A stretch of 64,000 nucleotides of DNA, taken from Dehalococcoidia bacterium (lineage in GTDB: Bacteria > Chloroflexota > Dehalococcoidia > Lucifugimonadales > UBA3495). Position 1 is the first letter of the stretch. Every line of letters starts with the position of its first letter. Both the position numbers and the translations under genes were made by a program. The notes under the pieces were generated by a model. The model was given only the letters and a program-made list of their open reading frames with translations. It was not told the origin of the DNA and ran no database searches. This document shows positions 17,742-34,424 of this stretch, piece after piece. The stretch covers positions 70,889-134,888 of the forward strand of contig CBDAVT010000001.1 of NCBI GenBank assembly GCA_965201145.1. Direction: 5' to 3'.

Positions 17742-19145
17742 TTACCGGCGATAGCTGTAACCTCTTGGGGTGCGTTCACAGTTCAGGCGGCGGTTCAGGT
17801 GCAGCCCATCCAGAATGAACTCGATCGCCGCTGCCTGAACTTCCGGCCGCGGGTCGTCGGTCAAGCGGGACACGGCCTCGGCCAGGCCCTCAACTTCCGC
17901 GGTCATCCGGGAATATTCCCCGGCCGGTTTTTCGCTGCCGGTCTCCGCCTGGCAGCCCAGGTCAAAAGCGGTTACCACGTCATCCAGAGACTCCACGTCA
18001 AAGTAGCGGCCAAAGACCCGCATTACGGCCCGTTTGGTCAAGTCTTCCATCACCCGGTCTTCCCGCCCTTCCTCAAAGGTCTCCAGCTCAATCTTGCCGC
18101 CAAAGGAGGCGGCGATGTAGGGCAAGTCGCTGATTCGGGGACAGGCTATCAGATCCCCGGCCCGAATGGAGCGCCGCACGGCATTGCTCAGCAAAGTCTC
18201 GTAATTGGCGATCGACACCCGCACACTGACCCCGGAACGCTGGTTGATTTCGCTGCTGCTACGCGCCTGAGCCGTAATCTCGGCCAGAATCTCCTTGATA
18301 TACCCGGGAATAACCAGGTTCTCCTCGTCAAAGAACCGGGCCCGCTCCTGGTCCATAATGGTAATTTCCTCTTCAATCCGGCGCGGGTAATGGGTATGAA
18401 TCTGGGAGCCGTAGCGGTCCTTCAAGGGGGTTACAATGCGGCCCCGGTTGGTATAATCCTCCGGATTGGCGGTAGCCACCACGTAAACGTCCAGGGGCAG
18501 CCGGATGCGGTAGCCTTTAATCTGCACGTCCCTTTCTTCCATCAGATTAAAGAGGCCCACCTGAATCCGCTCGGCCAGGTCGGGCAGCTCGTTGATGGAA
18601 AAGATGCCCCGATTGGTGCGGGGAACCAGCCCATAATGGATTGCCAGTTCGTCGGAGAGGTGGCGTCCTTCGGCTACCTTGATGGGGTCGATTTCGCCGA
18701 TCAGGTCGGCAATGGAGATGTCCGGGGTAGCCAGCTTCTCCGAGTAGCGCTGCTCCCGGCCAATCCACTCAATCGGGGTAGCATCGCCCAGCTCGGCTAC
18801 CAGATCGCGGCTGGCCTGGCTGATCGGATTGAAAGGGTCGTCGTTAATTTCGCTGCCGGCAATTATGGGAATGGCCTCGTCCAGCAGGTTGACCAGGCTG
18901 CGAATGAGCCGGGACTTGGCCTGCCCACGCTCGCCCAGCAGGATAACGTCCTGGCCGGCCAGGATGGCATTTTCCAACTGGGGGATGACCGTATCCTCGA
19001 AACCGACAATGCCGGGGAAGACCAGTTCCTCGGCCCGCATCCTGGACACCAGGTTGTTGCGCAGCTCCTCCCGCACCGGGAGGACTCGGTAGCCGGATTC
19101 GCGGAGTTCGCCGATGGTTTGCGGTCGGTTGGCAGCAGTCATCAT
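17742..19145 (-). CDS. AAA+ ATPase, Mg-chelatase ChlI/BchI-like
   Basis: 467-aa ORF with Walker A LLGERGQAKS, Walker B/sensor region (IFSINELPDL) and the ChlI-like segment VFPGIVGFEDTV... Confidence 0.75.
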   Translation of the reverse strand: MMTAANRPQTIGELRESGYRVLPVREELRNNLVSRMRAEELVFPGIVGFEDTVIPQLENAILAGQDVILLGERGQAKSRLIRSLVNLLDEAIPIIAGSEINDDPFNPISQASRDLVAELGDATPIEWIGREQRYSEKLATPDISIADLIGEIDPIKVAEGRHLSDELAIHYGLVPRTNRGIFSINELPDLAERIQVGLFNLMEERDVQIKGYRIRLPLDVYVVATANPEDYTNRGRIVTPLKDRYGSQIHTHYPRRIEEEITIMDQERARFFDEENLVIPGYIKEILAEITAQARSSSEINQRSGVSVRVSIANYETLLSNAVRRSIRAGDLIACPRISDLPYIAASFGGKIELETFEEGREDRVMEDLTKRAVMRVFGRYFDVESLDDVVTAFDLGCQAETGSEKPAGEYSRMTAEVEGLAEAVSRLTDDPRPEVQAAAIEFILDGLHLNRRLNCERTPRGYSYRR

Positions 19146-19240
19146 CCCCTCAATAGTCCAGCGCAGTCAAAATAGTACGGCGGATAGTATAGCACAGCGG
19201 GGAAAGGGGGAATTGGGAAAAGCCTGGAAAGGGAACCGGA

Positions 19241-19717
19241 TTATAAATCCCGGGTCAGATCTTGCAGCTCATCCAGGATTTCAGTGAAAACCGGGAATTG
19301 ATACCGTTCCAGGGTTTCGTGAAATGTCTCTTCGCCGGTGGCCGGGTCGTAGATGCGGTGATGGTATTCTTCCCGGTCGGCATGGAGATTGTGATATTTA
19401 AGCAACAGGTGTTCGCCCGGCAAAAAAGCGACGTAGCGGTAGGTATGCACTCTGACCCGCAGGGTATTTCCAAAGTATCGAATATCGAACTCTTTGTTAA
19501 CGTCCACTATGACACCCTTTTCGCAGTGAACCTGACCCTGCAAATAGAGGATACCCTCATCCTCTGATATGGTGAAGACGAGGGTATCCTGATAGTTCAC
19601 TACAAAAGGATGTTCACTTAGTCGGTTTTCGTGGATGGTTCGGTAGTGGTCCCAGGAGTTCCAGTCGTGGGGATCTCGCCGCGGAGCAATCGGACTCCTT
19701 GCCAGGTGGAATACCAT
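19241..19717 (-). CDS. DUF6516-like protein (candidate TumE-type toxin)
   Basis: 158-aa ORF. The motif YRYVAF...LLLKYHNLH....YHHRIYD...GEE resembles the DUF6516 signature as I recall it. GAGGT lies 6 nt upstream of the ATG. Confidence 0.5.
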   Translation of the reverse strand: MVFHLARSPIAPRRDPHDWNSWDHYRTIHENRLSEHPFVVNYQDTLVFTISEDEGILYLQGQVHCEKGVIVDVNKEFDIRYFGNTLRVRVHTYRYVAFLPGEHLLLKYHNLHADREEYHHRIYDPATGEETFHETLERYQFPVFTEILDELQDLTRDL

Positions 19718-19890
19718 TTAAGTACCTCTGCCGTAGGGCGTATCGCATCCAGCTCCAGCAATTTTGCCATCTTTGCGCTGGACATTTCATAGCGGATTTC
19801 GTACTTTCGGAGCTCGGCTTGCCGTTCCTGAAGTATCTGCTCCCGCGGCACCACCCGCACCTGTACTCTCCCGGTAGTCTTGGTAGCCAT
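19618..19890 (-). CDS. small hypothetical protein (candidate cognate antitoxin)
   Basis: AGGAGGTG lies 5 nt upstream of ATG 19890 (the ORF track starts further up at 19944). The 90-aa product overlaps the downstream gene by 100 nt. Confidence 0.5.
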   Translation of the reverse strand: MATKTTGRVQVRVVPREQILQERQAELRKYEIRYEMSSAKMAKLLELDAIRPTAEVLKWYSTWQGVRLLRGEIPTTGTPGTTTEPSTKTD

Positions 19891-19959
19891 AATTTCACCT
19901 CCTGACCGGACAGCCAGTTTAACAGCGCCGCCCGGAGTTTTCAACCGGGCAGCGTCCGG

Positions 19960-20793
19960 TTAAGTGACCAGCCGGGCGTTCCGGGGGCGCTTCTTGCCGC
20001 CGTGCACCGACGGTTCGGCGCACCATTTCTCCGCCAGCCGCCGCACTCCCAGATAGACTTCCCGGTCAAAACCCAGCAGGTCGCAAAGCACCATCCGGTC
20101 CAGCAAAGCCCGATTTGGATCGGCATCGGCCAGGTAAGCCGGCTGCAACTCCTTATCCCGGAATTCTTCAAAGATTATCTGCGCTGTTTCCAACTGCGAA
20201 TCGGACAGGGTTCGGAAATCGAGGACCGGGAGGGTGTCTATCGCGCTGATGGTCGTTCTTCCTCTACCGTCTTGCTGCCGGTTGGAGTGCCACCACCAAG
20301 ACAATAAACCCAATGTAGAATTACTCCATACCGTAAAGGCGTAGTCTTGCCGCCCATCAGCAAAGCTGACGTTAGGCCAAGCTGTACCACCAATGGACTT
20401 CTTTTCGGTAAAGCAGGCAGCCAGTGGCTGGGAATTGAATCGGAAATCCCGATTTACGTGAGCGCGGCTGGCCGTTTCCCAAACCTCGGCGGCTCTCGCC
20501 TCCATTCCCGGTCTGACCAACAGTTGGGAGTCCGACTCGCAGATTAGCCGAGTCTCTTGCTTGGCATCGTGGTTCCATAAACACGGATAGGTGGCGGTGG
20601 GACTGGGGGTGGACTTGGTGAAGGGGGCTGGGTGGGGCGGCCCTAATATCAGGCGGTCAACCAGACCGCGCTGGCCAATTGTTTGGAGGGCAGCTATCTG
20701 GAGCGGAAGGGGGTTGAGTTGGGTGGGCAACCAGAGTTTGGATTGGGTCAGGGCGTAAGCGGTTTGGGCTACTGCGCCGTCCCGGAAGCGCAC
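19960..20793 (-). CDS. type IIG-like restriction-modification enzyme, C-terminal (target-recognition-like) part
   Basis: It is in the same frame as 20818..22860, separated only by TAG plus 8 sense codons, with no RBS of its own. WSNSTLGLLSWWW...LPVLDF resembles TaqI-like C-terminal specificity domains of Eco57I-family methylases. Confidence 0.65.
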   Translation of the reverse strand: MRFRDGAVAQTAYALTQSKLWLPTQLNPLPLQIAALQTIGQRGLVDRLILGPPHPAPFTKSTPSPTATYPCLWNHDAKQETRLICESDSQLLVRPGMEARAAEVWETASRAHVNRDFRFNSQPLAACFTEKKSIGGTAWPNVSFADGRQDYAFTVWSNSTLGLLSWWWHSNRQQDGRGRTTISAIDTLPVLDFRTLSDSQLETAQIIFEEFRDKELQPAYLADADPNRALLDRMVLCDLLGFDREVYLGVRRLAEKWCAEPSVHGGKKRPRNARLVT

Positions 20794-20817
20794 GGCGCCC
20801 CAGGACGGCGCAAATCC

Positions 20818-22860
20818 CTACGGGATTTGCGCCGTCGCGATTTCGCCCATTTGTTCTAATCCAATCTGCAACGGAGTGGCGCCATAAGGACCTTCCTCAA
20901 TGTTCCGTACCGATGCAGCTACCGCAGCGCTTCGAGCCAACTCTCGAGCCTGAATTCCCCCTTGCGGCCGGCTGGTCAGCGAAGTAAATCGTCCTGTAGT
21001 TGACACATTGCTCTGTCCCGGAGCGTTACGGCGCTTTCGGGCAATTACCAGACACTCCGCCATACCCGTATCTGAGGAGAAGGACATATCCTTGCCATTG
21101 GCCGCAATACTTAAAACTTCCAGGCCCTCATAGTCAGCAGCCAATAGTTGCCGGAACTTGGCCCAGGAAGTTCCGGCGGATACCGACAGGGGCAGGACAA
21201 AGGCTAACACCCCGCCGGGCTTGAGCTTGCGGTGGGCCAGAGCGGTAAAAGCCGAGGCCGTCCCGGCCTTGCCGTCGTAACAACTTTTTTGGCCCAAGTC
21301 TCGCATCCGTTTGCCCATATCATCCATATCGGCTTTGGTAGCCCCAAAAGCGGCAAAGGCCGGATTAACCACGTTGGAGTGCACACCTCCGTGGTTGGTG
21401 GCCCGAGTAAAAGGCGGGTTCATAATCACCAGGTCAAATCCTGCGTCGGGGACTTCCACCAGCACCTGGGCGGCAGTTTCCTCGCCGGCGCTGCCGGTAC
21501 GCAAGGCTGGGTCGGTGGTGTTAAACAAAGTCATCGCCGCCGAGGACTGGAGCAGTTCCAGCGAGCCGATTTTGACGCTGCCGTCCTCCTGCCGGCCGTA
21601 GGGCATAGTGTAGATGTGGGATTGGCCGAAGGACTCATTAGGCTGAATGCCGGAGAGGGTAGCGGCGGTGATATGCACCGCCGAAGGCATCACGTCGCAG
21701 CCATACAGGACTTCCTCCAGCATTGCCCGGTGCAGCTTTGCCGGGTCGCCGCCGCCGGCCTGCTCGTGGCGGGCGGCAATCTGCTCATAGACCGCCGACA
21801 GCAGCGCGCCGGTACCGCAGGCAAAGTCGCCCACCCGCAGCTTTCCGATGGCTTCTTTATCGGCCCAATCCACCTCTTCCAGCTTGGCTACGGCCAGCCG
21901 GGCCAGCTGCGCCGCCGAGGCCGGCAAAGTGTAAAAGGTAGCCAGATACTTGCGGTCGGCAATCAGCCGTTGAAACACCCGTCCGGTCAAGTCGTGAGCG
22001 TTGGTTACACCTCCCTCCTCCACCGATTGAGCGGTGGCGCGCAGAACACTGAGGATCCGGGCCGCTGCGCCGGAGGGCAATTGCATCAGGATGTCTTTAG
22101 CCAGGATGAAGATCGGGTAATAGTTAATCTCGAGAATCTCGTTCCAGGCGCCGAGGATGGCAACCTGGGCCGTAGGTTCCGTCAGCCGGTGCAAAGACTT
22201 GATTTCCGGGTGCATACCGGCGATGCGCTCGTGAAAGATCAGGGCGTTGGCGATTATGGCACCAGCCATTTTGCGGGTTTGGGGAACATCGGGCATCCCC
22301 AGCAAGCTGGCAATGGCGGCCGGCACCTCGGACTCACGTTTTGCCATCTCATCCAGCACCGCGGCGGCCCGGTCTATGCCACCCTGCAAGGACTCGGCGG
22401 CCCGCTCCACTTCCCGCTGCGGCAGGGAAACCAGGCGGATAAGGTCGGACAGGTCGGCCGCGCTGCCGTGGAGCCAGCCGGCGGTGGGGAATCGGGCGCC
22501 ATCCTCGTAGCAGATACAGTATTCCAGACGGGCGGCTTGCAGCGCATCAGACAGATTAGACGCTTCGGGAATTTCCGCCGGGTAGCGCAGGGCAATGGCT
22601 GCCTCGATGGGGCGGTTCTCCCCGGTTACGCTCAGCCCCAGGCGGGATTGGGCCTCCGCCTCGGCAGTGACGGCCGGCAAGTATTCCGCCTCCACCACCA
22701 CTGGCGAGCGGCCCGGGGCGGTTACCAGGATGTCCGGCTGCCGACCGGCGTATCCCGCAAAGACTCGAGTACTCTCGGTGATTACTTCCGCCCGGCCCAG
22801 CATATCACCGAGCAGGGAGCCTAAAACATAGTTGGCGCTGGGTTCCGAATGGCGCGGCAT
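20818..22860 (-). CDS. type IIG-like restriction-modification enzyme, N-terminal nuclease-like plus N6-adenine methyltransferase part
   Basis: 680-aa ORF. It has a possible PD-(D/E)xK region (PDILV...VVVEAEY), SAM motif I (VGDFACGTGALL) and catalytic motif IV (NPPF). Confidence 0.8.
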   Translation of the reverse strand: MPRHSEPSANYVLGSLLGDMLGRAEVITESTRVFAGYAGRQPDILVTAPGRSPVVVEAEYLPAVTAEAEAQSRLGLSVTGENRPIEAAIALRYPAEIPEASNLSDALQAARLEYCICYEDGARFPTAGWLHGSAADLSDLIRLVSLPQREVERAAESLQGGIDRAAAVLDEMAKRESEVPAAIASLLGMPDVPQTRKMAGAIIANALIFHERIAGMHPEIKSLHRLTEPTAQVAILGAWNEILEINYYPIFILAKDILMQLPSGAAARILSVLRATAQSVEEGGVTNAHDLTGRVFQRLIADRKYLATFYTLPASAAQLARLAVAKLEEVDWADKEAIGKLRVGDFACGTGALLSAVYEQIAARHEQAGGGDPAKLHRAMLEEVLYGCDVMPSAVHITAATLSGIQPNESFGQSHIYTMPYGRQEDGSVKIGSLELLQSSAAMTLFNTTDPALRTGSAGEETAAQVLVEVPDAGFDLVIMNPPFTRATNHGGVHSNVVNPAFAAFGATKADMDDMGKRMRDLGQKSCYDGKAGTASAFTALAHRKLKPGGVLAFVLPLSVSAGTSWAKFRQLLAADYEGLEVLSIAANGKDMSFSSDTGMAECLVIARKRRNAPGQSNVSTTGRFTSLTSRPQGGIQARELARSAAVAASVRNIEEGPYGATPLQIGLEQMGEIATAQIP

Positions 22861-23038
22861 AGTTCTTCACCTTCTTGCAGCAATCAACAATTCCGCCGAA
22901 GTATAACAGAAGCGCCGCCGCGGTAGGCCGGCTTGCCGTTGCTGCAACTGTACCGAGGCATCCAGATGGAGCCGCACCTAGGTTACAAATGCCGAGTACC
23001 GGCGACAAAGCGTCCACACCAATTTCAGGCTCACCCGC

Positions 23039-23593
23039 TTAAATGGGCAAAACCGGTTCGGTGCGTTCTTCAGGCAAGTCAATCAGGAAGGTATTGGCGT
23101 TGAAGGCCAGTAGGGCATAGTAGCCGAAAAGGGTGCACAGTTCGGTCAATCCCTGGGCGCCGAACTGGTCGAAGGCCGCCTGAAAAGTCTCCTGGCTGAC
23201 CTGGCGGGTGCGGAAAAACTCCTGGCCCAGATTGACCACCGCCTGCTCATCGGCGGCCAGTTCGGGCAAGGGTTGGTTATCCCGCAGGGCGTCCACGAAA
23301 GCGTCGCTGATCCCCTGGCGGCGAGCGCCGGCGGCGTGGGCGTTCCAGATATACGGGCAGTCGTTGGCCCGGGCGGTAACAATCATCGCCAACTCCTGGA
23401 TGCGCTTGGGCAGCGTCGATTCGTCCCGCAGGTAATTGACCAGCGCATTGGCCCGGCGGCGCATTTCAGGACTGTTAATCATAGCCGAGCCGGGCCCGCC
23501 GGTCACCGTGCCGCCGGTAGTGGCGGTCTCGTGGTGAAAAGCTTCGCGTAATTCCTCGGGAACATTGTCGCGGGTAAGGATGGGAGTACGCAT
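23039..23593 (-). CDS. carboxymuconolactone decarboxylase (AhpD-like) family protein
   Basis: The ORF is 23039..23719. I chose the start at ATG 23593, preceded by AAGGAGGC. ARANDCPYIWNAH is an AhpD-like core. Confidence 0.75.
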   Translation of the reverse strand: MRTPILTRDNVPEELREAFHHETATTGGTVTGGPGSAMINSPEMRRRANALVNYLRDESTLPKRIQELAMIVTARANDCPYIWNAHAAGARRQGISDAFVDALRDNQPLPELAADEQAVVNLGQEFFRTRQVSQETFQAAFDQFGAQGLTELCTLFGYYALLAFNANTFLIDLPEERTEPVLPI

Positions 23594-23690
23594 GATGGGT
23601 GCCTCCTTGCTAATTTTGCTGCCACCTCGCCGACGGAGCGCGCCAATTCTATGTCGCCTGGATAAAAGCGCCGTTATTAGCCGGTAGCGA

Positions 23691-25187
23691 TTACAAGGCT
23701 CGCAACTCAGCCAAGGCATCCTGAAGCTCCCGGTTATTTTTCTCGATCAAGTCAAGAATCTCCGACGGGGTCCTGGTGTCAACAATTTCCTTGCGGTTGG
23801 GGTTGACCGCCTTCAGGTCATAATTCTTTGCCTCTATTTCCTCCCGAGTGACGGTCCAACTATTTTCACTGTCTTCGCGACCAGGCAGCAGCCTAAAGAA
23901 GTCGTCAAAATGGGCTCGAGTCAGGGGATTCCCCTTGTTGACTTTCAGGTAGGAAAGGTCGTAGTACCAGACCTGCTCAGTTTTCTTGCCCTTGTTGAAG
24001 AAGAGCAAATTGGTTTTTACCCCGGCGCCGGCCTGAGTGAAAACTCCCCCGGGCAAGCTGACAATGCAGTAGAGGTCACATTCGTCCAGCAACCAACGCT
24101 TGGTCTGAACAAAAGCGTTTTCATTAGTTCTGAAAAGCAGTCCCTCGTCAACTACTATCCCGGCCCGTCCGCCGAACTTCAGGCTGTTTATTACTTCCTG
24201 CAGGAAAAGTATCTGGGTAGAGGAGGTCTTATAAGTATATTTTACCCGGGCTTCGCTCCCTTCTTTACTTCCAAAGGGCGGATTCATCATTATCACGTCG
24301 AAGATGTTAGGCGCGCCCTGGTACAATCCCCCGTAGATTTCGTTATCGGTCAGAGTGTTGCCGTGCCAAATATTGGGCCGGTTTATGCCATTCAGCATCA
24401 GATTGGCCAGAACAATGGGAGAGAGCAGGTTCTCTTTTTCCTTACCGTAGAAGGTTTCGGTAGCCAATTGTGCCAATTGCTCGCCGGTAGCGTTGAGACC
24501 CAAGCCGTCTCTCATAAAGTGATACGATTGAGCCAGGAATCCCCCGGTGCCACAGGCGGGATCGAAGACCGTCTCACCCAATCGGGGCTTGACGGTTTCT
24601 ACAATTACCTTAATTACATCTCGTGGAGTGAAGAACTGCCCACCATCGTTGTTCTTCTCTCCCATCTTGAGGAGAAGCCCTTCGTAGGCGTGAGAAAGAG
24701 TGGAATTCTGGGTTATCTCTGCACCGGACAGTTTTATAGAGCTAACGGCATCCAAGACATCCAGAAATTTACGCTCAGTATCGACTTGGACCCGCTCTAC
24801 AATGGACAATATTTCGCCGATAACTTTCTGCCTGACTGTAGCGTCATCCCTTTCCCTAAGGACTCGTAGCCGTGGGAGCAGTTCGTTGTTTACGAAATTG
24901 AACAATTCGCCAAGAGAGCCGGCTTCCAGTTCCTGTCGTTTCTGGCCTTCTTTCGACGCCCAGTCTTGCCAGCGGTAGGGGTATCGCAGAGAAGGACTGA
25001 AGGCGCGGCCCAGTATTTCCGATTCCTCTGCTTCCAGCGCTTCTTGCTGGTCCAGAATATTCAAAAAGAGAAGCCAGGTCAGTTCAGGAATGTACTTCAT
25101 GGCCCCGGCACAGTTAGAGCGCCGCAAGATGTCGCAAATACCCTTAATCTGTGCCGCTATGGACACTGGCGCAGTTGAGGTAGTCAT
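23691..25187 (-). CDS. hsdM: type I restriction-modification system methyltransferase subunit
   Basis: HsdM N-terminal domain (LTWLLFLNILD), motif I (FDPACGTGGFL) and motif IV (NPPFG) are present. The ATG overlaps the hsdS stop (TGATG). Confidence 0.92.
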   Translation of the reverse strand: MTTSTAPVSIAAQIKGICDILRRSNCAGAMKYIPELTWLLFLNILDQQEALEAEESEILGRAFSPSLRYPYRWQDWASKEGQKRQELEAGSLGELFNFVNNELLPRLRVLRERDDATVRQKVIGEILSIVERVQVDTERKFLDVLDAVSSIKLSGAEITQNSTLSHAYEGLLLKMGEKNNDGGQFFTPRDVIKVIVETVKPRLGETVFDPACGTGGFLAQSYHFMRDGLGLNATGEQLAQLATETFYGKEKENLLSPIVLANLMLNGINRPNIWHGNTLTDNEIYGGLYQGAPNIFDVIMMNPPFGSKEGSEARVKYTYKTSSTQILFLQEVINSLKFGGRAGIVVDEGLLFRTNENAFVQTKRWLLDECDLYCIVSLPGGVFTQAGAGVKTNLLFFNKGKKTEQVWYYDLSYLKVNKGNPLTRAHFDDFFRLLPGREDSENSWTVTREEIEAKNYDLKAVNPNRKEIVDTRTPSEILDLIEKNNRELQDALAELRAL

Positions 25188-26377
25188 CAAAAATCTCCCG
25201 AAAAGGCTTGCCGCAACAATATTGACCGCAGGACTTCCAAGTCCCCAATTTGATGATGAGCCAGCATTTCAATCTCCCCAACAGTGGCCGCCTTGCGGTC
25301 CAGATTGGCTACAATACGCTGCTGCTCGGCCAGAGGTGCGAGGGGTATCATAAATGACTTTAGTTGTTTGCCGGTTATGGCATCAAATGTGCTGCCTGAC
25401 CCTTTTTCTGCTATGCTATCTTCAAGGAAACGAAGAGCGACAAGCAAGAAATCCTTATCGACATCGCCACTACACTTTATCGCGGCCAGTCCTCGACCGA
25501 TGCAACACTTTTCCACTGCAACGTTAGTAGGACCAACCGGCGCCCTTACAGAAATCAACACATCTCCCGGATCAGCAATTTTTTGGGGTGATATGCACCA
25601 AGCTGTGACCGTCGGATTGTATTCACCAAAGTCTGCTTTCCCTTGAAAAAATGGAAGCCCTTCCGGCTGGTTTCTGTAAGTGGAACTTGGTGGTGATTGT
25701 CCAAGAATTATTTGGCATACCTCCCCCAGCTTAACCCACTTCCAGCCCTGCGGGAGCTGCTGCCCTAAAGAGGGCAGCAGCTCCCGCGTGATCGCGCTTT
25801 TAGAGAACTAATGTTCGCAATTGCTTCTTCAGCAGCCCGTCGAGCTTTATCCACTAACGCCATTTGCTGGTCCAGCCTGGCTACAATACGCTGCTGCTCG
25901 GCCAGGGGTGGGAGGGGGATGGCTAAATTTGACATTGACCTAAAATTCAAAGTCCTGCCCTTTACAGCATGTCCTAAGACACCTTCATAGTCTATTACAG
26001 GCAATAGGTGCTTTAAGAATTCTTTGTCAGTTCGGCTTTCGTCAATCGGTATTAGACCTGCAATCGCTTCGTTGGTGTAGAGATCACAACCTGCAATAGC
26101 TGTCTTGCCGATAGTCAGCTTAAAGCTAAAGATAAGTGTTCCCTCTTCAAGTAGCCTTTGTTTGCACAGATCGGCACCTTCATCCGAGAGCATTTCTTTT
26201 GTATCTATTATGACATTGGACTTCATATCAGAAATGGTCACCCATGGGTGGTCGCCACCCCAATATTCCAATTTGTTTCTACTAGGTGTTCGCCCTATCA
26301 CAATCCGACAAACATCCCCCAGCTTAACCCCACTTCCAGCCGGGAGGCAGGGGTTTGTTGGTATCGGGCAAGGTCAT
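25187..26377 (-). pseudogene. hsdS: type I R-M specificity subunit, two frameshifts
   Basis: MTLPDTNKPLPPGWKW, then an extra G in the run at 26328-26331. TRD1 and LPPLAEQQRIV follow, then an A missing from the run at 25798-25801. After that come LPQGWKWVKLGEV, TRD2 and LAPLAEQQRIV...AFSGDF. The track ORFs 25765..26301 and 25187..25561 are fragments of this gene. Confidence 0.85.
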
Positions 26378-26451
26378 CGGGAGACATCCTTTGCATTAAC
26401 GTTATAGTAGGAGGACGGAGGTTGTCGCGTAGTGAAATCGGAGCAGTAAAA

Positions 26452-26730
26452 TTAGTCCGACTCACGCCAGAGATGCGGCTTTTCGGAGAGCCGTCCTATA
26501 TTGGCAATCGTAATTACATCTTCCTGGACCGTAAAGATTATCCAATGAAACAAATCTCGGTAAAGCTTACCTACCAGCGGAGGCATATCAAAAGGCACAA
26601 TTGCCGGATCGTCGGGAGCCAGGTAATGAGTGTCGGCTAACCAAACAATGTCATTGATAAGCTTGCTTCTGACGTTATTCGGCTGGGTATCCAAAAATTT
26701 TTTGCTAGAACTGGCAAACCGGATGTCCAT
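26452..26730 (-). CDS. RelE/ParE-like toxin
   Basis: 92-aa ORF starting immediately after the Panacea-domain gene stop. LVGKLYRDLFHWIIFTVQEDVITIANIG resembles the RelE/ParE C-terminal beta-strands. Confidence 0.6.
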   Translation of the reverse strand: MDIRFASSSKKFLDTQPNNVRSKLINDIVWLADTHYLAPDDPAIVPFDMPPLVGKLYRDLFHWIIFTVQEDVITIANIGRLSEKPHLWRESD

Positions 26731-27261
26731 CTAGCAGAGCCCATACTCTTTTTTGATTTGTTCCAGGGACCAGGTTCCCTGCTCCTCCAAGTCTCTATGA
26801 TACATCCGGGACTCCGCTTCCGTCGCGCCCATTGCCGGCAAAGATTGTTCCATCTGCAGCCGGTCGTACGGTCGAGCGCCCTCGAAAGGAGCCGTTTCTT
26901 TACTCACCGCCGTGATTTCTTCCACGGAGAGCTTCCCGTACCGGTGAACGACATCGCTCAAAACCATTTGGACCCGGGCGGGCAAGGCGGGAATTGGCGT
27001 ATCCGGTTCCAAGCTGAAATATCTGCTGCCATACCCACTCTTTCGCTCACTGAGCAGAGGCTCCGCCGCAGCAATGATACCATGCTTTATTGCATTAGGC
27101 CCGAAGCGATCCCAGTGATACTCAAAGCCGGTAACCGTTTCACCAAAATGCTGAAAATGGACATAGTCAACCAAATACACCAGTTTGACCAGCTGCATCG
27201 CTTGAACCTGGACACCTAGTTCCGCCATTATATTTAGAATTACATCATTGGCATTATTCAT
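26731..27261 (-). CDS. Panacea (DUF4065, SocA-like) domain antitoxin
   Basis: LVKLVYLVDYVHFQHFGETVTGFEYHWDRFGPN matches the DUF4065 core. The start is ATG 27261 (the track ORF begins at TTG 27273). Confidence 0.75.
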   Translation of the reverse strand: MNNANDVILNIMAELGVQVQAMQLVKLVYLVDYVHFQHFGETVTGFEYHWDRFGPNAIKHGIIAAAEPLLSERKSGYGSRYFSLEPDTPIPALPARVQMVLSDVVHRYGKLSVEEITAVSKETAPFEGARPYDRLQMEQSLPAMGATEAESRMYHRDLEEQGTWSLEQIKKEYGLC

Positions 27262-27450
27262 ACTGCCCCCCAAGCATTGACCAAACCGGTCCCCCTGGAG
27301 TGATCCGGGGGATGTCGTATAGGATGCCCATCAATATTACCATACGAATAACCGGCGTACCTAGAACTTCAGGTAGCGGTATTTCAACCGCCGTGAGATC
27401 TCCACAAATTCCAAAATAACTTTAGGCCGGCTGTCCAGGGAGAAATTTCA

Positions 27451-29298
27451 TCACGCCGAAAACATCCTCCGCTTGGTTTCGGTCATAGCCTCTGCCGGGT
27501 TTCCGAACTCCCACAAGGAAGCGACGCCGCCGGCTAGAGTTACCTCAGGGGTCTGGAATATTTGCGGACTTTCCAAACCTTCCGTGCCGCCCCTGGTGAA
27601 CTGGGAAGTAATGGCTTGGATGACTGCTGCCGTTGCCGCCGGCAGATTATTGAGCCAATCCCGGTTCTTATAAGCAAAGGCTTCGGCTCGGGCTTCCCTG
27701 GTTTTTGCCGCCTGCCCATAGGCCAGGTCAGCCAGCACATCGAACAGGTCGCAGTCTTCCATATCGGAAAACTCCCGAATCAAGTTAGCGCCGGCCTCGG
27801 GCAGATTTTCCAGCACTTCGCGCCGCGCCGCGGGCTGGATCCAGGCAGCCCGAAACTGGTCCAACACCGGTATATCCGCCACCAGACGGGCAGCCAGCCG
27901 CTGTTTATACTCTTCCAGCGTAACCATTACCTGCTGTCCGGCAGCGTCCATTTCCGTGATATAAGCGCCGGCCGAAGATATGCGAACGTCGAACCCGTGG
28001 GCCACTACCAGAGTTTCCGGCTCACGGGGAGAAGTACCATCAGCATCGGTGTCTGAATTACCTTCGGGCCGGAAAGCCTGGATGAAGTCTTCGGCAAATA
28101 GTCGGGTAGCATTAGTGTAGTCATACACTCGGAAGGAGAGCTTGTTGATACGTTCGTCAATCCGGGTGCCTCTGCCCACCATCTGGTAAAAGGCGATGGG
28201 AGAGCTGACGTACTTAAAGAACACTATATTCACCACCGGAGGGACATCCACTCCGGTGGTCAGCAAGTCAACGGTGGTGGCAATAAAGTAGCGCTGGCTG
28301 CTGCTCTTAAAGTCGGCAATCAGACCCTGGCCCTCACTGGCCGCAGTGCACTTGAAGGCATAGCTCTCAACCCTGGTTTGACCATTGGCCTGACACCATT
28401 GGGTATATAGATTGTTCATTTCATTAGCTACGGCGTCGGCATGCTGGTCGCGGATGCAAAAGATAATGGTTTTCTGATGGGGAGTTATTTCGTCCTGCAC
28501 CAAATGGTTGAACAAGTCCTGACACATAGCTTCTATACGGTCCGGGAGCATGAGCCTGGCCTCAAAGCTTTGGGCATTATAATGCTCCCTGACTACCTGC
28601 GGCTCCACCGCTTGGCCGGTAAGTTGATCCGTAAGGGCCTTATTCTCCAAATCGGCACGGTCAACGCCGGTGACACTTTCCGGGGCCGGCTGATCATCAA
28701 GAAATACATCCCGTTTGATTATTTCCATAGCCGCCAGGTAACCGTCTTCTATGCCACGGCCGATGGAGTACTCGTAAATCGGTTCACCAAAATATTTGTA
28801 GTTGTCGTTAGTTATCCGTTGGTCTTCCCTGCTCTCCGGCGTGGGTTTGACATAGTGAAAGGTTCGCGGGGTTGCCGTAAGACCGATTTGCACCGCATTG
28901 GGATTGCGGCGCAAAACATCGTGCCACTTACCCCAGGCAGAGCGGTGGCACTCGTCAATTATGATATGGCTGAAGTAATCAAAGGGATAGTTGGCGGTCA
29001 GGAATGAATCATTAGCATCATCTCGATCTACACCAAGGGTCTGGTAAGTGGCAATGATGATGCGGGCGTTCTTTTGCGGGTTGCCCGCGCTGGCCGCCGC
29101 CGCATTATTGCCAAACTCATTGCTGAAAGCGCTTAATCCCTGGGTCCGCAGCTCATCCCGGTCACACAAGAACAATGCTTTGCGAAGCTGGCCGGCGTCA
29201 GCAATCCGCTTCAGCAGGTTCACCGCAATAAAGGTCTTGCCCGAACCGGTAGCTAAACTGATTAAGGCGCGGTTTTCGCCACGAGCTATCTTTTCCAA
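27451..29298 (-). CDS. hsdR: type I restriction enzyme R subunit, helicase and C-terminal part
   Basis: Walker A ATGSGKT, DEAH box (IIIDECHRS), helicase C motifs and an EcoEI_R_C-like tail are present. Upstream the frame continues as RYYQDAAIRAVLEKIA. Confidence 0.88.
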   Translation of the reverse strand: MEKIARGENRALISLATGSGKTFIAVNLLKRIADAGQLRKALFLCDRDELRTQGLSAFSNEFGNNAAAASAGNPQKNARIIIATYQTLGVDRDDANDSFLTANYPFDYFSHIIIDECHRSAWGKWHDVLRRNPNAVQIGLTATPRTFHYVKPTPESREDQRITNDNYKYFGEPIYEYSIGRGIEDGYLAAMEIIKRDVFLDDQPAPESVTGVDRADLENKALTDQLTGQAVEPQVVREHYNAQSFEARLMLPDRIEAMCQDLFNHLVQDEITPHQKTIIFCIRDQHADAVANEMNNLYTQWCQANGQTRVESYAFKCTAASEGQGLIADFKSSSQRYFIATTVDLLTTGVDVPPVVNIVFFKYVSSPIAFYQMVGRGTRIDERINKLSFRVYDYTNATRLFAEDFIQAFRPEGNSDTDADGTSPREPETLVVAHGFDVRISSAGAYITEMDAAGQQVMVTLEEYKQRLAARLVADIPVLDQFRAAWIQPAARREVLENLPEAGANLIREFSDMEDCDLFDVLADLAYGQAAKTREARAEAFAYKNRDWLNNLPAATAAVIQAITSQFTRGGTEGLESPQIFQTPEVTLAGGVASLWEFGNPAEAMTETKRRMFSA

Positions 29299-29822
29299 TA
29301 CCGCACGAATAGCGGCATCCTGATAGTAACGGCGTGCCGTTCACCCTTGGAATAAGGTGTGACCAAGGGCTTGGCTTCAGTGGAATCCAGTTTGAACCCC
29401 CGCTTTTGTTCATAGCGAACTTGCAATTCCGAGGGGGACGGAAACTCGGACATAGGTCGAGGGTTGGTAGTCAAGCCGGTAAATTGGTCATATTCCACAA
29501 ACTGGTGACCGTTAGAGGAATATACGAAAGGAGTATTCAGGCGGTCGGCGTATCCTTTTGCTTGCTCCAGACCAAATCCAGGGGGATTATCTTCAGACTT
29601 GGCCTCTACCAGAGCCACAGCCACAGGCTGCTTTCCCGCTTCAGACACAACCCGCAACGTATAGTCAACTCGTTTGTTACGGCGACGAGCTCTACCACCA
29701 ACGATTTCAATCTTACCTGCAGTTTCTTCACGCTTAATCAGGTTCTCCGTCCAACCTCGCGCGTGAAGAGCAGGATCGATTAGCTTCGCTCGCGTATCTG
29801 ATTCGTTAAAAGGCATATCCAC
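29286..29822 (-). CDS. hsdR: type I restriction enzyme R subunit, N-terminal nuclease (HSDR_N) part
   Basis: PD-(D/E)xK region (VDYTL...ALVEAKS). It is joined to the helicase part by a 1-nt loss in a C-run (plus-strand GG at 29351-29352). Confidence 0.85.
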   Translation of the reverse strand: MDMPFNESDTRAKLIDPALHARGWTENLIKREETAGKIEIVGGRARRRNKRVDYTLRVVSEAGKQPVAVALVEAKSEDNPPGFGLEQAKGYADRLNTPFVYSSNGHQFVEYDQFTGLTTNPRPMSEFPSPSELQVRYEQKRGFKLDSTEAKPLVTPYSKGERHAVTIRMPLFVRYWKR

Positions 29823-29849: not shown

Positions 29850-30983
29850 CTACCCCACAATCTCCCTGACCGTCTTGTCCACCAGCTCTATCGGGACGTC
29901 GCGGCGGACGGTGGCTTGGCCTGTTTTTTCCAGCATTATCCAGCGGTTAGCGCCACCGGAGACCTTTTTGTCCAGGGACATAGCCCGGCGGATGTCATCT
30001 ACCGGGACGCCTGGCGCGGCAGTGGGCAGGTTGAACCGGCGCAGCAAGTCATACTGGCGGTCAACCAGGTCCTGACCGTGCAGCCCCATGGCGCAGGCCA
30101 TTTTGGCAGCGCCCATCATCCCGATGGACACCCCCTCGCCGTGCATAAACCGGCCATACTCGGTGGAAGCTTCCAGGGCATGGCCGATGGTATGACCGTA
30201 GTTCAGCAAAATGCGAATGTCCAGGGTTTCCCGCTCGTCCTGGCTGACCACATCGGCCTTGATAGCCATACTGCGGCGGATAACCTCGGTGGAAATTTCC
30301 GGCTCCACCTCCATTAACGCCTCAGCGTGTTCCTCGAACACATCCACCAATGCGGCGTCCAGAATGAAGCCGTGCTTGATCGCCTCGGCCCAACCTTCGG
30401 ACAATTCCCGCTTGCCCAGCGTGGACAGAGCCTGCACGTCAGCCAGCACGGCCCGGGGCTGGTAGAAGGCGCCCACCAGATTCTTGCCATGGGGCAGGTT
30501 CACCGCCACCTTGCCACCGATGGAAGCGTCCACCATCGCGGCCATGCTGGTCGGCACCTGCACGAAGGGAACGCCCCGCAGAAAGGTAGCCGCCACGTAA
30601 CCGGCCAGGTCGCCCACTACGCCGCCGCCGACGGCCAGGATGGCGTGGCCCCGCTCGGCGCGCAGGCTCACCAGCCATTCGTAGATAGCCTGGGCCAGGC
30701 TGTTGGTCTTGCTGGGTTCGCCGGGGGGAATGATGAAACAGTGGGCGGCGATACCGTGTCGCTGCAAGGCCCGCTGGGCCCGGCGTCCGTAACGGTTCAT
30801 CAGGTTTTCGTCGGTGATGATATAAACGGGACTGCCGATACCCAGATCGGTGAGCCAGTCGCCCAGCCGGTCGATGATGCCCCAGCCAGCTACCACCGGG
30901 TAGCTGCCGCCGGAATGATAAACGGTCGCCGCCAGGTCGGGATTAGCGTTGGAGTCAAAAGCAGAGTTTGTTGCGGTGGTCAT
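29850..30983 (-). CDS. aroB: 3-dehydroquinate synthase
   Basis: 377-aa ORF with GGGVVGDLAGYVAATFLRGVPFVQVPTS..AMVDASIGGK, the canonical AroB core. Confidence 0.93.
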   Translation of the reverse strand: MTTATNSAFDSNANPDLAATVYHSGGSYPVVAGWGIIDRLGDWLTDLGIGSPVYIITDENLMNRYGRRAQRALQRHGIAAHCFIIPPGEPSKTNSLAQAIYEWLVSLRAERGHAILAVGGGVVGDLAGYVAATFLRGVPFVQVPTSMAAMVDASIGGKVAVNLPHGKNLVGAFYQPRAVLADVQALSTLGKRELSEGWAEAIKHGFILDAALVDVFEEHAEALMEVEPEISTEVIRRSMAIKADVVSQDERETLDIRILLNYGHTIGHALEASTEYGRFMHGEGVSIGMMGAAKMACAMGLHGQDLVDRQYDLLRRFNLPTAAPGVPVDDIRRAMSLDKKVSGGANRWIMLEKTGQATVRRDVPIELVDKTVREIVG

Positions 30984-31149: not shown

Positions 31150-31383
31150 TCATGGACGCACATTACCAATATAAGTGACGTGAGTAAACACTATGGCCCG
31201 ACGGTCTTCGGGGATCGGCGCTTCCACCGCGCCCGGAGTCCTCATCCACACGCGCTGGCCCAAGTTGGCATTGTCGAGAATCCACTGACGGGAAACTCGG
31301 TGCGGCATACCATAGTGGCTGGCCGGCAAGCGGTCGAACACTTCAACAACCTCCACAGATTCTAATTCAGGAACCCCGGCCAA
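31150..31383 (-). CDS. hypothetical protein (77 aa)
   Basis: An ORF co-directional with aroB and aroK, lying between them. No family recognised, and coding status is uncertain. Confidence 0.3.
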   Translation of the reverse strand: MAGVPELESVEVVEVFDRLPASHYGMPHRVSRQWILDNANLGQRVWMRTPGAVEAPIPEDRRAIVFTHVTYIGNVRP

Positions 31384-31478: not shown

Positions 31479-32033
31479 TCATCCTCCAACTTTTCCGAGA
31501 TTCAGGAAACTCAGCGCCACGTCTGCCACTTCCTCCGGTGTCCGGGTGTCGGTGTCGATGCAGTGGTGGGCCTGGGCGTAGGCGTCGGCCCGTTCCGCCA
31601 GCAGTTCCCGTATCCGGGCTAAAGGGTCGAGGCCGGTCAGCAGGGGACGGGCCGCCGCGCCCGATGCCTGGTCCGATTTCAAGCGTTGGTGAATGGTCTC
31701 AGGCTGGGCGCGGAGGCAGAACACCCGGCCGCCTTGAAGCATAGTTTGACGGTTTTGCGGGTCCACGAAGGCCCCGCCGCCGGCGGAGATGACTTGCCCC
31801 GAACCGGCGCACAATTCGGCGATTACCTCCCGTTCCAGAGCGCGAAAGGCGGACTCCCCATCCTCGGCAAATATACGGTCAATGGACTTGCCGGCCCGGG
31901 CGATTATTTCCGAATCGGCGTCCACCGGAGTCCACCCGGTACGCTGGGCCAGGACACGCCCTACATGGCTCTTGCCCGAAGCCATAAAGCCTACCAGGAT
32001 GATGTTCTGCGGCGGAGTCAATGTTCCCTTCAA
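31479..32033 (-). CDS. aroK: shikimate kinase
   Basis: Walker A GFMASGKSHVG, with DADSEI and the RALE motif. The ORF extends to 32096, but I prefer TTG 32033 (or 32021) because it removes the overlap with the upstream gene. Confidence 0.85.
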   Translation of the reverse strand: MKGTLTPPQNIILVGFMASGKSHVGRVLAQRTGWTPVDADSEIIARAGKSIDRIFAEDGESAFRALEREVIAELCAGSGQVISAGGGAFVDPQNRQTMLQGGRVFCLRAQPETIHQRLKSDQASGAAARPLLTGLDPLARIRELLAERADAYAQAHHCIDTDTRTPEEVADVALSFLNLGKVGG

Positions 32034-32043
32034 GTCAAGAGGA

Positions 32044-32430
32044 TCAGATTTCCAACGTAACGTCCGGGTCCCGAAACGCCAGCGCGAACTGGTCATAATC
32101 CGCCAGCGGGTCAGTCTTGATTATCTCCAGAATTCCGAAAAGCGCGCCTTGCAACTGGAAGTCATTGCCAGTCTTCACCGCTTCGTGCAGCACAACGTAG
32201 AGCTCTTCCAGACTGGCTTTACGCTCCGCAAACTTCAACTCGTAATAGCGCAGCAGCGCTTCCTGCTCTAACCGAAACTTCTCCCGCAACGTTTCATGGT
32301 GGGCTCTAATCCATTCCCGCCGGGATTCTTCCTGCTCGTGGGATTCATACATTTGGACGATCGCTTGCAATCCCAACTTGAAAGCTTGTAATGACAACTG
32401 AGAAACTGCCATGGCAACTTGGGGATTCAT
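32044..32430 (-). CDS. hypothetical all-helical protein (128 aa)
   Basis: GAGGAG lies 10 nt upstream of the ATG, suggesting translational coupling to the upstream ORF. No family recognised. Confidence 0.6.
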   Translation of the reverse strand: MNPQVAMAVSQLSLQAFKLGLQAIVQMYESHEQEESRREWIRAHHETLREKFRLEQEALLRYYELKFAERKASLEELYVVLHEAVKTGNDFQLQGALFGILEIIKTDPLADYDQFALAFRDPDVTLEI

Positions 32431-32437
32431 ACGCTAT

Positions 32438-33031
32438 CTACTCCTCTATGATTCGCCGAGTATCTTCCGATATACCCGGCTGCTCTATCAATTCTCTGAG
32501 CGTCTTCGCAGTCAAGTATATCTGATGCGGCAGATGGAGATCGGGTTCTAAAGGTCGGTTATATTGCATAGGTTCCAGGACCGGTGCAGAAATGCCTCTA
32601 GCCTTCCCCAGCAGATCCCGCAACGCTCGATCTGTATTCTCTGTAATTTCCTGGAGTTCCTCAATTCTGAGTATAGAAGTCTGCATAGCAGTTATCTTAC
32701 GAAGAAGTTTCTTCTCTAAATAAGCAAATCGTTTCAGTCTGGCGTCCACTTGTTTCTCGTAGAGCCATTCCTCAGAGATTTCACTCAATATGTATGGCAG
32801 CGACTCCACTGTGTACTGCTTGGCAACTGCATGCAGGTATATAGCGGCGTCTCCCAAGGTCTGGTTAGCCTCAACTCGGACGCTTCTTAACTGGCTTTCG
32901 GTTCTGAAAAACCAGTGTAATTCAATCCTGTATTGCTTATGAACCTTCAAAACCCCATCAAGGCGTTCATCGTGAATCCTCTTCCATTTGCGCTGATTCG
33001 AAAAACCGGGACCAAAAGGTAATATCGACAT
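32438..33031 (-). CDS. hypothetical protein (197 aa), low-GC
   Basis: The ORF is 32438..33058, and the internal ATG 33031 is preceded by AGGAG. Sampled lines give about 40% GC against roughly 60% background. No family recognised. Confidence 0.6.
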   Translation of the reverse strand: MSILPFGPGFSNQRKWKRIHDERLDGVLKVHKQYRIELHWFFRTESQLRSVRVEANQTLGDAAIYLHAVAKQYTVESLPYILSEISEEWLYEKQVDARLKRFAYLEKKLLRKITAMQTSILRIEELQEITENTDRALRDLLGKARGISAPVLEPMQYNRPLEPDLHLPHQIYLTAKTLRELIEQPGISEDTRRIIEE

Positions 33032-33109
33032 AATTTTAACCACTCCTACCGGGGCCATGCGTCCCTATGGTTTCGTCGCGATTTTTCACGCCCTTCAGCA
33101 AACAACTGA

Positions 33110-33934
33110 CTACCCCGGCAGCTGGGTCAGGTGCATTCGGCTGCCCATGCTGGTGTCGGTGTCGAAGTAGAGGACTTGCTGGCCTACCGAGTTGGTGTTG
33201 GGAGCATCGGCGACGAATCGGAAGCCCTGGCCGCAGCAGTCGGCGATGCCGGCGTGAATGTCATCCATCACGTAGCCAACATGGTCCATAGCGTGGTTCT
33301 CGCCCAGTTCCTCCGGGTTGGCCGGCTCGATCAACTCCACCTGCACCTGCCCGAAGTTGACGAAGGCGTTGCGGCCGCCCCGCCGCGAAGCGCCGCCGCC
33401 GATATGCTCGCCATCAAACTTTTCCACGTACCAGGCGATAGCCTCGTCCAGATCGGGAACCAGGTAGCCGGCGTGGACAATTTTGGCTACCGGCACGCCG
33501 CCGCCCACTCCGGTATGGACGGCGTTTTCCGGCGCCGGCAGTTGGGTCAGGTGAATCAGGATATTGTTGGTAGTGTCGGGATGAAAATAGAGCAGCTGCT
33601 GACCCAACTGGTTAGTACGGGGAGCATCGGCGGCAAACCGGAATCCGCGGGCCCGACATTCAGCGATGGCGGCGTGGATGTCCGGCACTACGTAGGCTAC
33701 GTGGTGCATCACCAGGGCGTCCCGGGGCAAATCCGCCGTATCCGCCGGCTGAATCAGCTCCACCTCCACCTGGCCGAAGCGCAGAAATGCGTTGATGCCG
33801 CCACCGGGAACCTGTACGCTGCTGGCGACGTCGCCGCCGCCGGCTCGTTCAGCGCCAAAGCCCCGGTGGTACCAGGCGATGGCAGCTTCCAGGTCTGCGG
33901 TGTAGTATCCGATATGCTGTATCCTGTCGAACAT
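33110..33934 (-). CDS. VOC (glyoxalase/bleomycin-resistance/dioxygenase) family protein, tandem-domain
   Basis: 274-aa ORF with two internally repeated halves (IxHxGYxVxDLxxAIAWY ... HHVAYV). This is the VOC-fold pattern, as in methylmalonyl-CoA epimerase-like proteins. Confidence 0.75.
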   Translation of the reverse strand: MFDRIQHIGYYTADLEAAIAWYHRGFGAERAGGGDVASSVQVPGGGINAFLRFGQVEVELIQPADTADLPRDALVMHHVAYVVPDIHAAIAECRARGFRFAADAPRTNQLGQQLLYFHPDTTNNILIHLTQLPAPENAVHTGVGGGVPVAKIVHAGYLVPDLDEAIAWYVEKFDGEHIGGGASRRGGRNAFVNFGQVQVELIEPANPEELGENHAMDHVGYVMDDIHAGIADCCGQGFRFVADAPNTNSVGQQVLYFDTDTSMGSRMHLTQLPG

Positions 33935-33997: not shown

Positions 33998-34424
33998 CTA
34001 ACGTTGGGAACTCTGGAAGATGGCCTCTCGCAGTCCGTCCAGTAGCCCGTCCAAATGGGCCAGACGCTCCCGCATTGCCGCCAGTTCCCCGTCGTGGCTG
34101 TCCATCCTGGATTCCAGCTTGTCAAAACGCAAGTCCTGTCGCCGTTCCAGCACGGTTATCCGCTGATCCATCCTGGTTTCCAGCACGGTTCATCCGCTCA
34201 TCCATTCGGGCTTCAAAAGCGTCGAAGCGCTCATCCATTCGGGCTTCAAAGGCGTCGAGGCGCTGGTCCATCCAAACTTCAAAAGCGTCGAAGCGATGGG
34301 CAGTCCGGCTTTCGGCGTTGTCAATACGCTGACCCAAACGATGGGTGGTAGTCAGCATCAGGGCCACCAACACACCGAAGGCAGTAATTCCCGCACCAAG
34401 AACTGCGATCATATCCGGCGACAT
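33998..34424 (-). pseudogene. membrane-anchored coiled-coil repeat protein, one frameshift
   Basis: An N-terminal TM helix is followed by 11-aa repeats R[FL]DAFEARMDE. The 34122..34424 frame shifts into the 33998..34186 frame at an extra A (plus-strand TT at 34189-34190). Confidence 0.55.

Follow-up and report, generated by a model that had tools for sequence, protein, structure and literature searches.

A search for cassettes that lie inside BREX, DISARM or type I restriction systems has yielded 145 phage defence candidates, among them PDC-M09 (Payne et al., bioRxiv 10.1101/2024.01.29.577857). It consists of two genes and was recorded 380 times, and the supplement of that study describes it by nothing more than its family codes, FAM_02775>>FAM_02807. 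Our literature searches found no paper mentioning PDC-M09, and nothing relevant on glycine zippers together with phage defense. Here, we examine a cassette of two open reading frames (ORF-A and ORF-B, together A-B) that lies between a VOC/glyoxalase gene and aroK in a 64,000-nucleotide (nt) stretch of DNA from a Dehalococcoidia bacterium (contig CBDAVT010000001.1, positions 70,889 to 134,888), hereafter called the window. Comparison with relatives suggests, with a probability of roughly 0.6, that A-B stems from a membrane-targeting conflict module of two genes that is exchanged horizontally, and that this copy has decayed. Like PDC-M09, it is a two-gene cassette. Full-length orthologues of ORF-A match both PDC-M09A models of PADLOC (E values of 1e-20 to 1e-35), and some relatives lie inside a DISARM-like gene set or beside restriction systems.

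Relatives of A and B were obtained from database searches and come mostly from metagenome-assembled genomes (MAGs) of Dehalococcoidia type. A preliminary description of the window, made from its letters without database searches, had called the cassette an orphan. This view had to be abandoned, as both proteins have hundreds of relatives: profile searches returned at least 441 A-like proteins, some of them from Bacillus, Streptomyces and Deinococcus, and at least 476 cluster representatives of the B family, nearly all of 120-150 amino acids (aa). PDC-M09A matched the A relatives P0004, P0009, P0014 and P0017 with E values of 1e-18 to 1e-23, and the A relatives from Bacillus, Deinococcus and Streptomyces with E values down to 4e-35. 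ORF-A of the window, in contrast, was not matched by PDC-M09A at E <= 1, because the core recognized in its relatives (residues ~110-266) is mostly deleted from it. Judged by alignment, it would belong to the PDC-M09A family by descent and not by model score. The A and B proteins of the window gave no significant match in Pfam, NCBIfam, PHROG, PADLOC or the PDB sequences, and no Pfam or NCBIfam model was found for either family. Weak matches of the window proteins to RT_UG32, Ddi2 and kinesin were dismissed as noise.

The relatives of ORF-A are ~321 aa long, and their alignment spans only half of the window protein. Both alignment and tblastn place residues 27-104 and 213-321 of P0004 directly next to each other, in one frame, within ORF-A. 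No remnant of the intervening residues 105-212 was found by tblastn in any frame of the window, and the family hidden Markov model (HMM) matches ORF-A as two pieces (positions 17-107 and 210-304). The retained C-terminal part is 63% identical to that of a relative. In composition, the deleted block is 58% Gly, Ala, Ser and Thr, with 10 charged residues among its 108 and 24 small-xxx-small motifs. Every one of the 12 residues that do not vary among 74 diverse family members falls within this block (T146 to G181), and together they form the motif ASTGTxIAxLSGAAAxxAxLAWxGGG...GGGG.

An intact A protein (~300-330 aa) would begin with a membrane helix and continue into an antiparallel coiled-coil stalk, whose tip carries a hydrophobic Gly/Ala-rich block of ~100 residues; a short C-terminal helix, which is conserved, would complete it. 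The AlphaFold2 (AF2) model of a full-length relative (predicted local distance difference test score, pLDDT, 73.8; predicted template modeling score, pTM, 0.69) has two long helices (residues 5-86 and 203-268), a shorter one (97-123) and C-terminal helices, with the Gly-rich block modeled at low confidence between helices. The Gly/Ala-rich block likely enters the membrane. The deletion removes this tip and therefore leaves the helical stalk, and the retained parts of ORF-A are predicted to be all-helical.

The N-terminal membrane helix has decayed as well. ORF-A keeps one of its ten conserved columns, compared to 7-10 in 23 intact relatives, and its maximum 19-residue mean hydropathy on the Kyte-Doolittle scale is 1.36, compared to 1.76-2.02 in relatives. 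No convincing transmembrane (TM) segment was found in ORF-A by this measure, and the DNA over the helix cannot be aligned to the GC-rich TM-coding stretch of the relatives. A frameshift was ruled out as the cause of this odd N-terminus: a single frame aligns throughout, the missing sequence is present in no other frame, and the DNA has simply diverged. ORF-A has lost its membrane-inserting core, and this copy is most likely defunct as a membrane effector. The preliminary description had seen two entirely helical products with no TM segment and no motif. This is correct for the window proteins and misleading for the family, which is one of membrane proteins with an invariant motif; the absence noted there is an artefact of the window copy, because its membrane core is deleted.

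ORF-B, on the other hand, is preserved. It is 55-72% identical end to end to relatives of 121-128 aa and keeps every invariant column, and its AF2 model (pLDDT 81.6) is all-helical, with one long helix (residues 3-87) followed by two short ones. The B protein of an intact module would likewise be wholly helical, 120-146 aa long and translationally coupled to A. Profile searches of the PDB with B returned designed helical proteins, and no DNA-binding domain was found in it. In the window, the 3' end of ORF-A reads GAGGAG TAG, followed by 7 nt (ATAGCGT) and the ATG of ORF-B, and the final two codons of ORF-A (GAGGAG, 32441-32446) double as the Shine-Dalgarno sequence of ORF-B. A matching coupling of A to B, ...GAGGAGTAG-ATG, is seen at locus L002. 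The layout given in the preliminary description was borne out by the ORF listing and the sequence: two minus-strand ORFs of 197/206 and 128 aa with their coordinates (Table 1), the 7-nt gap, the GAGGAG before the second ATG and the translational coupling, the position between the VOC gene and aroK, and the end of ORF-B 10 nt before the aroK start, which is a TTG.

The partnership of A and B extends well beyond Dehalococcoidia. In a scan of all fetched loci with our own HMMs, A was neighbored by B in 13 out of 19 non-redundant contexts, and the two were adjacent in Chloroflexota, Actinomycetota, Bacillota and Deinococcota and in a Bacteroidota-like contig. Profile-profile comparison (hhalign) assigned the small neighbor of A to the B family in Streptomyces (98.3%), in Bacillus (94.5%) and in the Bacteroidota-like contig (99.8%). 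In Deinococcus, the B family member (99.5%) carries a fused N-terminal extension and stands upstream of A, in the order B-A. An Acidimicrobiales MAG (OY282384; L007, 6001-12960) has four A-like and two B-like genes in ~7 kb, among them one for a 796-aa protein that joins an A-like N-terminal domain to a long C-terminal extension, with a phage-like small gene upstream. This region appears to be an island of paralogous A/B modules.

At least three genomes of relatives (L002, L004 and L005) keep the arrangement VOC-A-B-aroK-(small ORF)-aroB, together with the upstream P450, ferredoxin and ABC-transporter genes. The window genome therefore did not acquire the pair recently. In the more distant L019 and L020 the slot is empty, with VOC followed by aroK after a gap of ~20 nt; VOC-aroK-aroB would thus be the ancestral order, and A-B an insertion in evolutionary terms. 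Elsewhere, the slot holds something else: an unrelated gene of 236 aa with low GC content at third codon positions (GC3) in L018, and in L014 (5879-7039, next to a VOC gene 85% identical) a low-GC3 (0.495) stretch of ~204 aa that matches no family and reads into aroK in frame with no stop codon. The L014 stretch may be a fusion to aroK or a separate upstream gene that lost its stop. As it is empty or differently filled in relatives, the VOC/aroK junction behaves as a cargo slot that A-B shares with several other possible occupants. The preliminary description had proposed a foreign insertion, and had named conservation in syntenic aro operons across the lineage as what would speak against one. 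Such synteny is, formally, what we find in the close lineage (L002, L004, L005), so the insertion is not recent; the accessory and compositionally foreign nature of the pair stands, as does the empty ancestral slot.

Table 1. Coordinates of the cassette and of its flanking genes in the 64,000-nt window.
Feature	Position	Strand	Remarks
ORF-A, internally deleted member of the PDC-M09A-like membrane coiled-coil family	32438..33058	minus	206 aa from first ATG; 197 aa from ATG at 33031
Deletion junction in ORF-A, codons CTC/TAC (Leu-Tyr)	32759..32764	minus	~108 codons, equivalent to P0004 residues 105-212, gone
Degenerate remnant of the ORF-A N-terminal membrane helix	32980..33058	minus	1/10 conserved columns kept
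Conserved C-terminal motif of ORF-A (EPDLHLPHQIYLTAKTLRELIEQPGISEDTRRIIEE)	32441..32545	minus	21/21 conserved columns kept
ORF-B, small all-helical partner protein	32044..32430	minus	128 aa, intact
VOC/glyoxalase gene (two-domain), upstream edge of the cargo slot	33110..33934	minus	Pfam Glyoxalase_4, E 5.8e-31
aroK (shikimate kinase), downstream edge of the cargo slot	31479..32033	minus	Pfam SKI, E 4.5e-40
aroB (3-dehydroquinate synthase), conserved backbone	29850..30983	minus	Pfam DHQ_synthase; variable defence island follows

Exchange of the cargo can be followed in two near-identical strains from the same sample, L004 and L005. Their flanks are 91-100% identical in DNA, compared to 56-79% for A-B, and the drop has sharp edges, starting where VOC ends and reaching into the 5' part of aroK. 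At the protein level, flanking products are 95-100% identical, A is 61-73% and B 82% identical. We interpret this pattern as the replacement of one allele by another, with recombination taking place in the conserved VOC and aroK flanks. A transposon- or integron-like insertion was ruled out, as neither bounding repeats nor a recombinase are present; specifically, no direct or inverted repeats bracket 32044-33058 and no recombinase or transposase gene adjoins it. No match was found in 50,697 phage records that would point to a phage origin. Only five A-like loci were seen in viral contigs in a collection of 2.9 million, and a plasmid search found only a solitary A-like gene, without B, on Vibrio plasmids.

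Base composition agrees in every locus examined: GC3 of the pair is 0.51-0.62 against 0.76-0.89 in the neighbors, also where neighborhoods differ. In the window, ORF-A has 46.2% GC (GC3 0.49) and ORF-B 51.7% (GC3 0.64), compared to 62.6-63.7% (GC3 0.71-0.78) in VOC, aroK and aroB. Among same-sized windows of the 64 kb, ORF-A ranks in the lowest 0.4% and A-B in the lowest 0.9%. The low GC content reported previously is thus real, although the sampled values of 38-42% were slightly too low (the lowest 200-nt window has 43%). No promoter-like or terminator-like sites were found between VOC, the cassette and aroK in a scan that covered sigma-70-type sites only, and A-B is probably transcribed together with both flanking genes. 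With the TTG start, aroK encodes a product of 184 aa, equal in length to its L002 orthologue. Between aroK and aroB lies a small ORF of 77 aa (31150-31383, minus strand) that matches no family and has 93-aa counterparts (48-50% identity) in the same place in L004 and L005.

The window is one of several places where A has been damaged. In L006, A is cut down to residues 237-321 beside an insertion sequence (IS) element and B is intact; P0055 and P0059 have frameshifts in the GGGG run of A, and P0018 and P0054 are A fragments. That A is repeatedly damaged while B is kept fits A as the costly or dangerous component of the module.

The neighborhoods of some relatives have a defence character. The Deinococcus pair is flanked by a DUF1156 gene and an SNF2-family helicase gene, a set that we take to be DISARM-like. 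The Streptomyces pair adjoins PIN and Type ISP restriction genes, the Bacillus pair adjoins a reverse transcriptase and MutH, and one solitary A adjoins AAA_15 and DUF3226 genes. The pair in the window is not itself embedded in a restriction system; a type I restriction-modification island begins past aroB, three genes away. This island (17742-29822, ~12 kb) contains a split HsdR, a Panacea-domain gene, HsdS, HsdM, an Eco57I-like methylase (680 aa), an AAA_5 ATPase and a CMD-family gene. In relatives, variable defence genes outside the conserved backbone include BsuBI/PstI with Eco57I, PDC-M33, or AbiD. The earlier suggestion of a defence-type module is upheld in part: full-length A relatives match a candidate defence model, and the Deinococcus and Streptomyces contexts agree with it. 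No known toxin or abortive-infection (Abi) family was recovered.

Several features of these islands were recorded in passing. In the window, HsdS is half-size, the SocA/Panacea-domain gene (26731-27273) is embedded between HsdS and HsdR, and the region from 23.5 to 27.5 kb is low in GC. HsdR (27451-29822, minus strand) is split into two overlapping ORFs, 29286-29822 (HSDR_N) and 27451-29298 (ResIII, helicase and EcoEI_R_C), which suggests a frameshift and may reflect a pseudogene or a sequence error. Past aroB, L004 (9558-12175) carries the PADLOC candidate PDC-M33 (PDC-M33A, E 1.6e-59; PDC-M33B, E 3.2e-36), adjoined by a DDE_5 transposase. On the other side of the slot, a 100-aa protein in the window (34122-34424, minus strand) starts with a TM helix and continues with 11-residue repeats (RMDERFDAFEA), for which the DNA has three tandem repeats of 33 nt (34195-34293). 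Its L005 orthologue (54% identity) occupies the same place, between P450 and VOC, and has weak PADLOC matches to LeoBC and ZorA; L004 has AbiD in its place.

Beyond PDC-M09, three described groups of proteins resemble the pair in some respect. A-family proteins weakly match the C-terminal stalk/paddle part of LeoBC, or LeoC (E values of 3e-5 to 7e-3), of the dynamin-like Eleos (LeoA-LeoBC) defence system, and the modeled A would share with these proteins a coiled-coil hairpin with a hydrophobic tip able to enter the membrane. Unlike Eleos, however, no GTPase or dynamin Pfam match was found in A, B or their orthologues, and none is encoded nearby; the similarity is too weak for a claim of homology. 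We also liken A-B to membrane-acting abortive-infection or toxin-antitoxin pairs and to glycine-zipper pore formers. A-B is small and coupled, the A block is dense in small-xxx-small motifs, and the membrane component is lost repeatedly whereas its partner is kept. It differs from them in having no sequence or fold match: apart from PDC-M09A, searches of Pfam, NCBIfam, PADLOC and PHROG gave nothing significant, and in particular no toxin, antitoxin or Abi family already known. Finally, a PDB profile match aligned the Gly/Ala-rich hydrophobic segment and the following coiled coil of A with the fusion peptide and heptad repeat A (HRA) of paramyxovirus F (E 1.4e-3 to 3e-2). This borderline match to a viral fusion protein was treated as compositional, as it almost certainly is. 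There is neither a fold match nor a shared biology; the match may serve as an analogy for a membrane-inserting segment carried on a coiled coil.

Taken together, A-B would be a copy of a widespread accessory module that occupies the VOC/aroK slot inside an apparent single transcription unit and that related strains swap through recombination in the conserved flanks. A would be a membrane-perturbing effector and B a bound regulator, sensor or neutralizer of A, the two possibly acting as an abortive-infection or other defence-type conflict system. In the window copy, deletion of the core and decay of the N-terminal membrane helix would have left a soluble stalk with the C-terminal motif next to an intact B. 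A role of A-B in defence or abortive infection would be the most likely one, given that A relatives match a PADLOC model, that some pairs are embedded in DISARM-like or restriction loci, that alleles turn over and that A has been pseudogenized repeatedly.

A number of points weigh against a decayed conflict module. Foldseek searches of the PDB with the AF2 models of full-length A and of B, which the preliminary description had proposed, were run and returned generic coiled coils only. PDC-M09 is only a guilt-by-embedding candidate that supplies a label and no mechanism. Moreover, the model of its second component does not recognize the B family: PDC-M09B was not matched by B of the window, by P0020 or P0030, by the partners from Streptomyces, Bacillus and Deinococcus, or by 54 diverse representatives of the B family, so the catalogued PDC-M09 may have another partner. 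The Dehalococcoidia copies in L001, L009 and L032 lie amid ordinary metabolic genes. The 324-nt deletion is known from assembled sequence, in a contig of ~592 kb that comes from an assembly of metagenome type. Should the gap be an error of assembly or consensus in a block that is Gly/Ala-rich and repetitive in character, the real gene would be full-length. We consider this highly improbable, given that the loss is exactly in frame with no remnant in any frame, that the TM helix has decayed independently in the same gene, and that the flanking sequence is of normal quality. A further point is what ORF-A has retained. Its stalk keeps 22/28 and 15/19 conserved columns and its C-terminal motif all 21, in contrast to the single column left in the TM helix, so that decay is confined to the membrane parts. 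This pattern hints that the shortened ORF-A is perhaps still under selection. It might then be a soluble derivative that still works with B, as a regulator, as a decoy, or as a "defused" module kept for the sake of B. The reading frame open across 206 codons, a deletion that joins two helices exactly in frame, and a wholly intact B with preserved coupling would all agree with such a role. Nevertheless, the window is a lone case among more than 440 relatives and has lost all of the family-wide invariant residues, the conservation of the C-terminus is partly due to the Shine-Dalgarno sequence of B, and a recent deletion together with a separately altered 5' end would look alike. The nearest intact alleles are only ~60% identical, a distance at which saturation of synonymous sites would be expected. 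A selected soluble A is, in our judgment, unlikely.

Two other explanations concern the module rather than the window copy. The pair could serve membrane stress or remodeling as a housekeeping function with no link to phages, A resembling a dynamin-like stalk/paddle or a PspA-type protein. The weak HMM similarity to LeoBC/LeoC, the metabolic neighborhoods in several Dehalococcoidia, the apparent co-transcription with VOC and aroK (within the limits of the sigma-70-type scan) and the presence of mechanosensitive-channel genes near A in L034 and L035 could be read in this way. The latter genes, of MscS type, lie a few kb upstream of A-family genes (L034, 2047-5020; L035, 2589-3641), and their occurrence in two unrelated genomes may be a coincidence. 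Such a function is disfavored, and to us quite improbable. The pair is patchily distributed, low in GC3 whatever the host, repeatedly pseudogenized and in places embedded in DISARM-like and restriction loci; its alleles are replaced between near-identical strains, and some relatives have the slot empty. All of this typifies accessory conflict genes and would be unusual for housekeeping genes. Horizontal exchange between strains, a small and tightly coupled pair, and repeated inactivation of A (by deletion, IS insertion and frameshifts) with retention of B would also be expected of a plain toxin-antitoxin addiction module, in which A is a membrane toxin and B its antitoxin, and which acts by post-segregational killing with no role in defence. 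We find this poorly probable too: no known toxin or antitoxin family was matched, both proteins are larger than those of typical type II pairs, and B has no DNA-binding domain that we could find. A bolder version of the membrane-targeting module would have A and B form a distinct, widespread and undescribed membrane system of two components, with A as a GTPase-less "stalk and paddle" and B as a small helical partner controlling its insertion. Strains would use it against phages and exchange its alleles at fixed slots in housekeeping operons, with A of the window as a "defused" soluble form under selection with B. This version, taken as a whole, is doubtful; if true, the soluble A of the window would delimit the B-binding part of the protein.

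On the reading of A-B as a decayed membrane-targeting conflict module, the window copy is probably non-functional and in itself adds little; what is gained is a definition of the A-B pair and of a cargo slot within an operon. The PDC-M09A candidate is now linked to a conserved family of partner proteins, which has no Pfam or NCBIfam entry and, in the copies searched, is unmatched by any PADLOC model. The partnership across at least five phyla offers experimenters a concrete two-gene unit, and the in-frame deletion, the IS-truncated copy and the frameshifted copies suggest that the active and costly part of A is the Gly/Ala-rich block. In addition, this locus indicates that conflict-type accessory genes can occupy a fixed slot in a housekeeping operon (VOC-aroK-aroB) and be replaced there allele by allele. 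Cargo embedded in operons in this way would escape island-based searches for defence genes.

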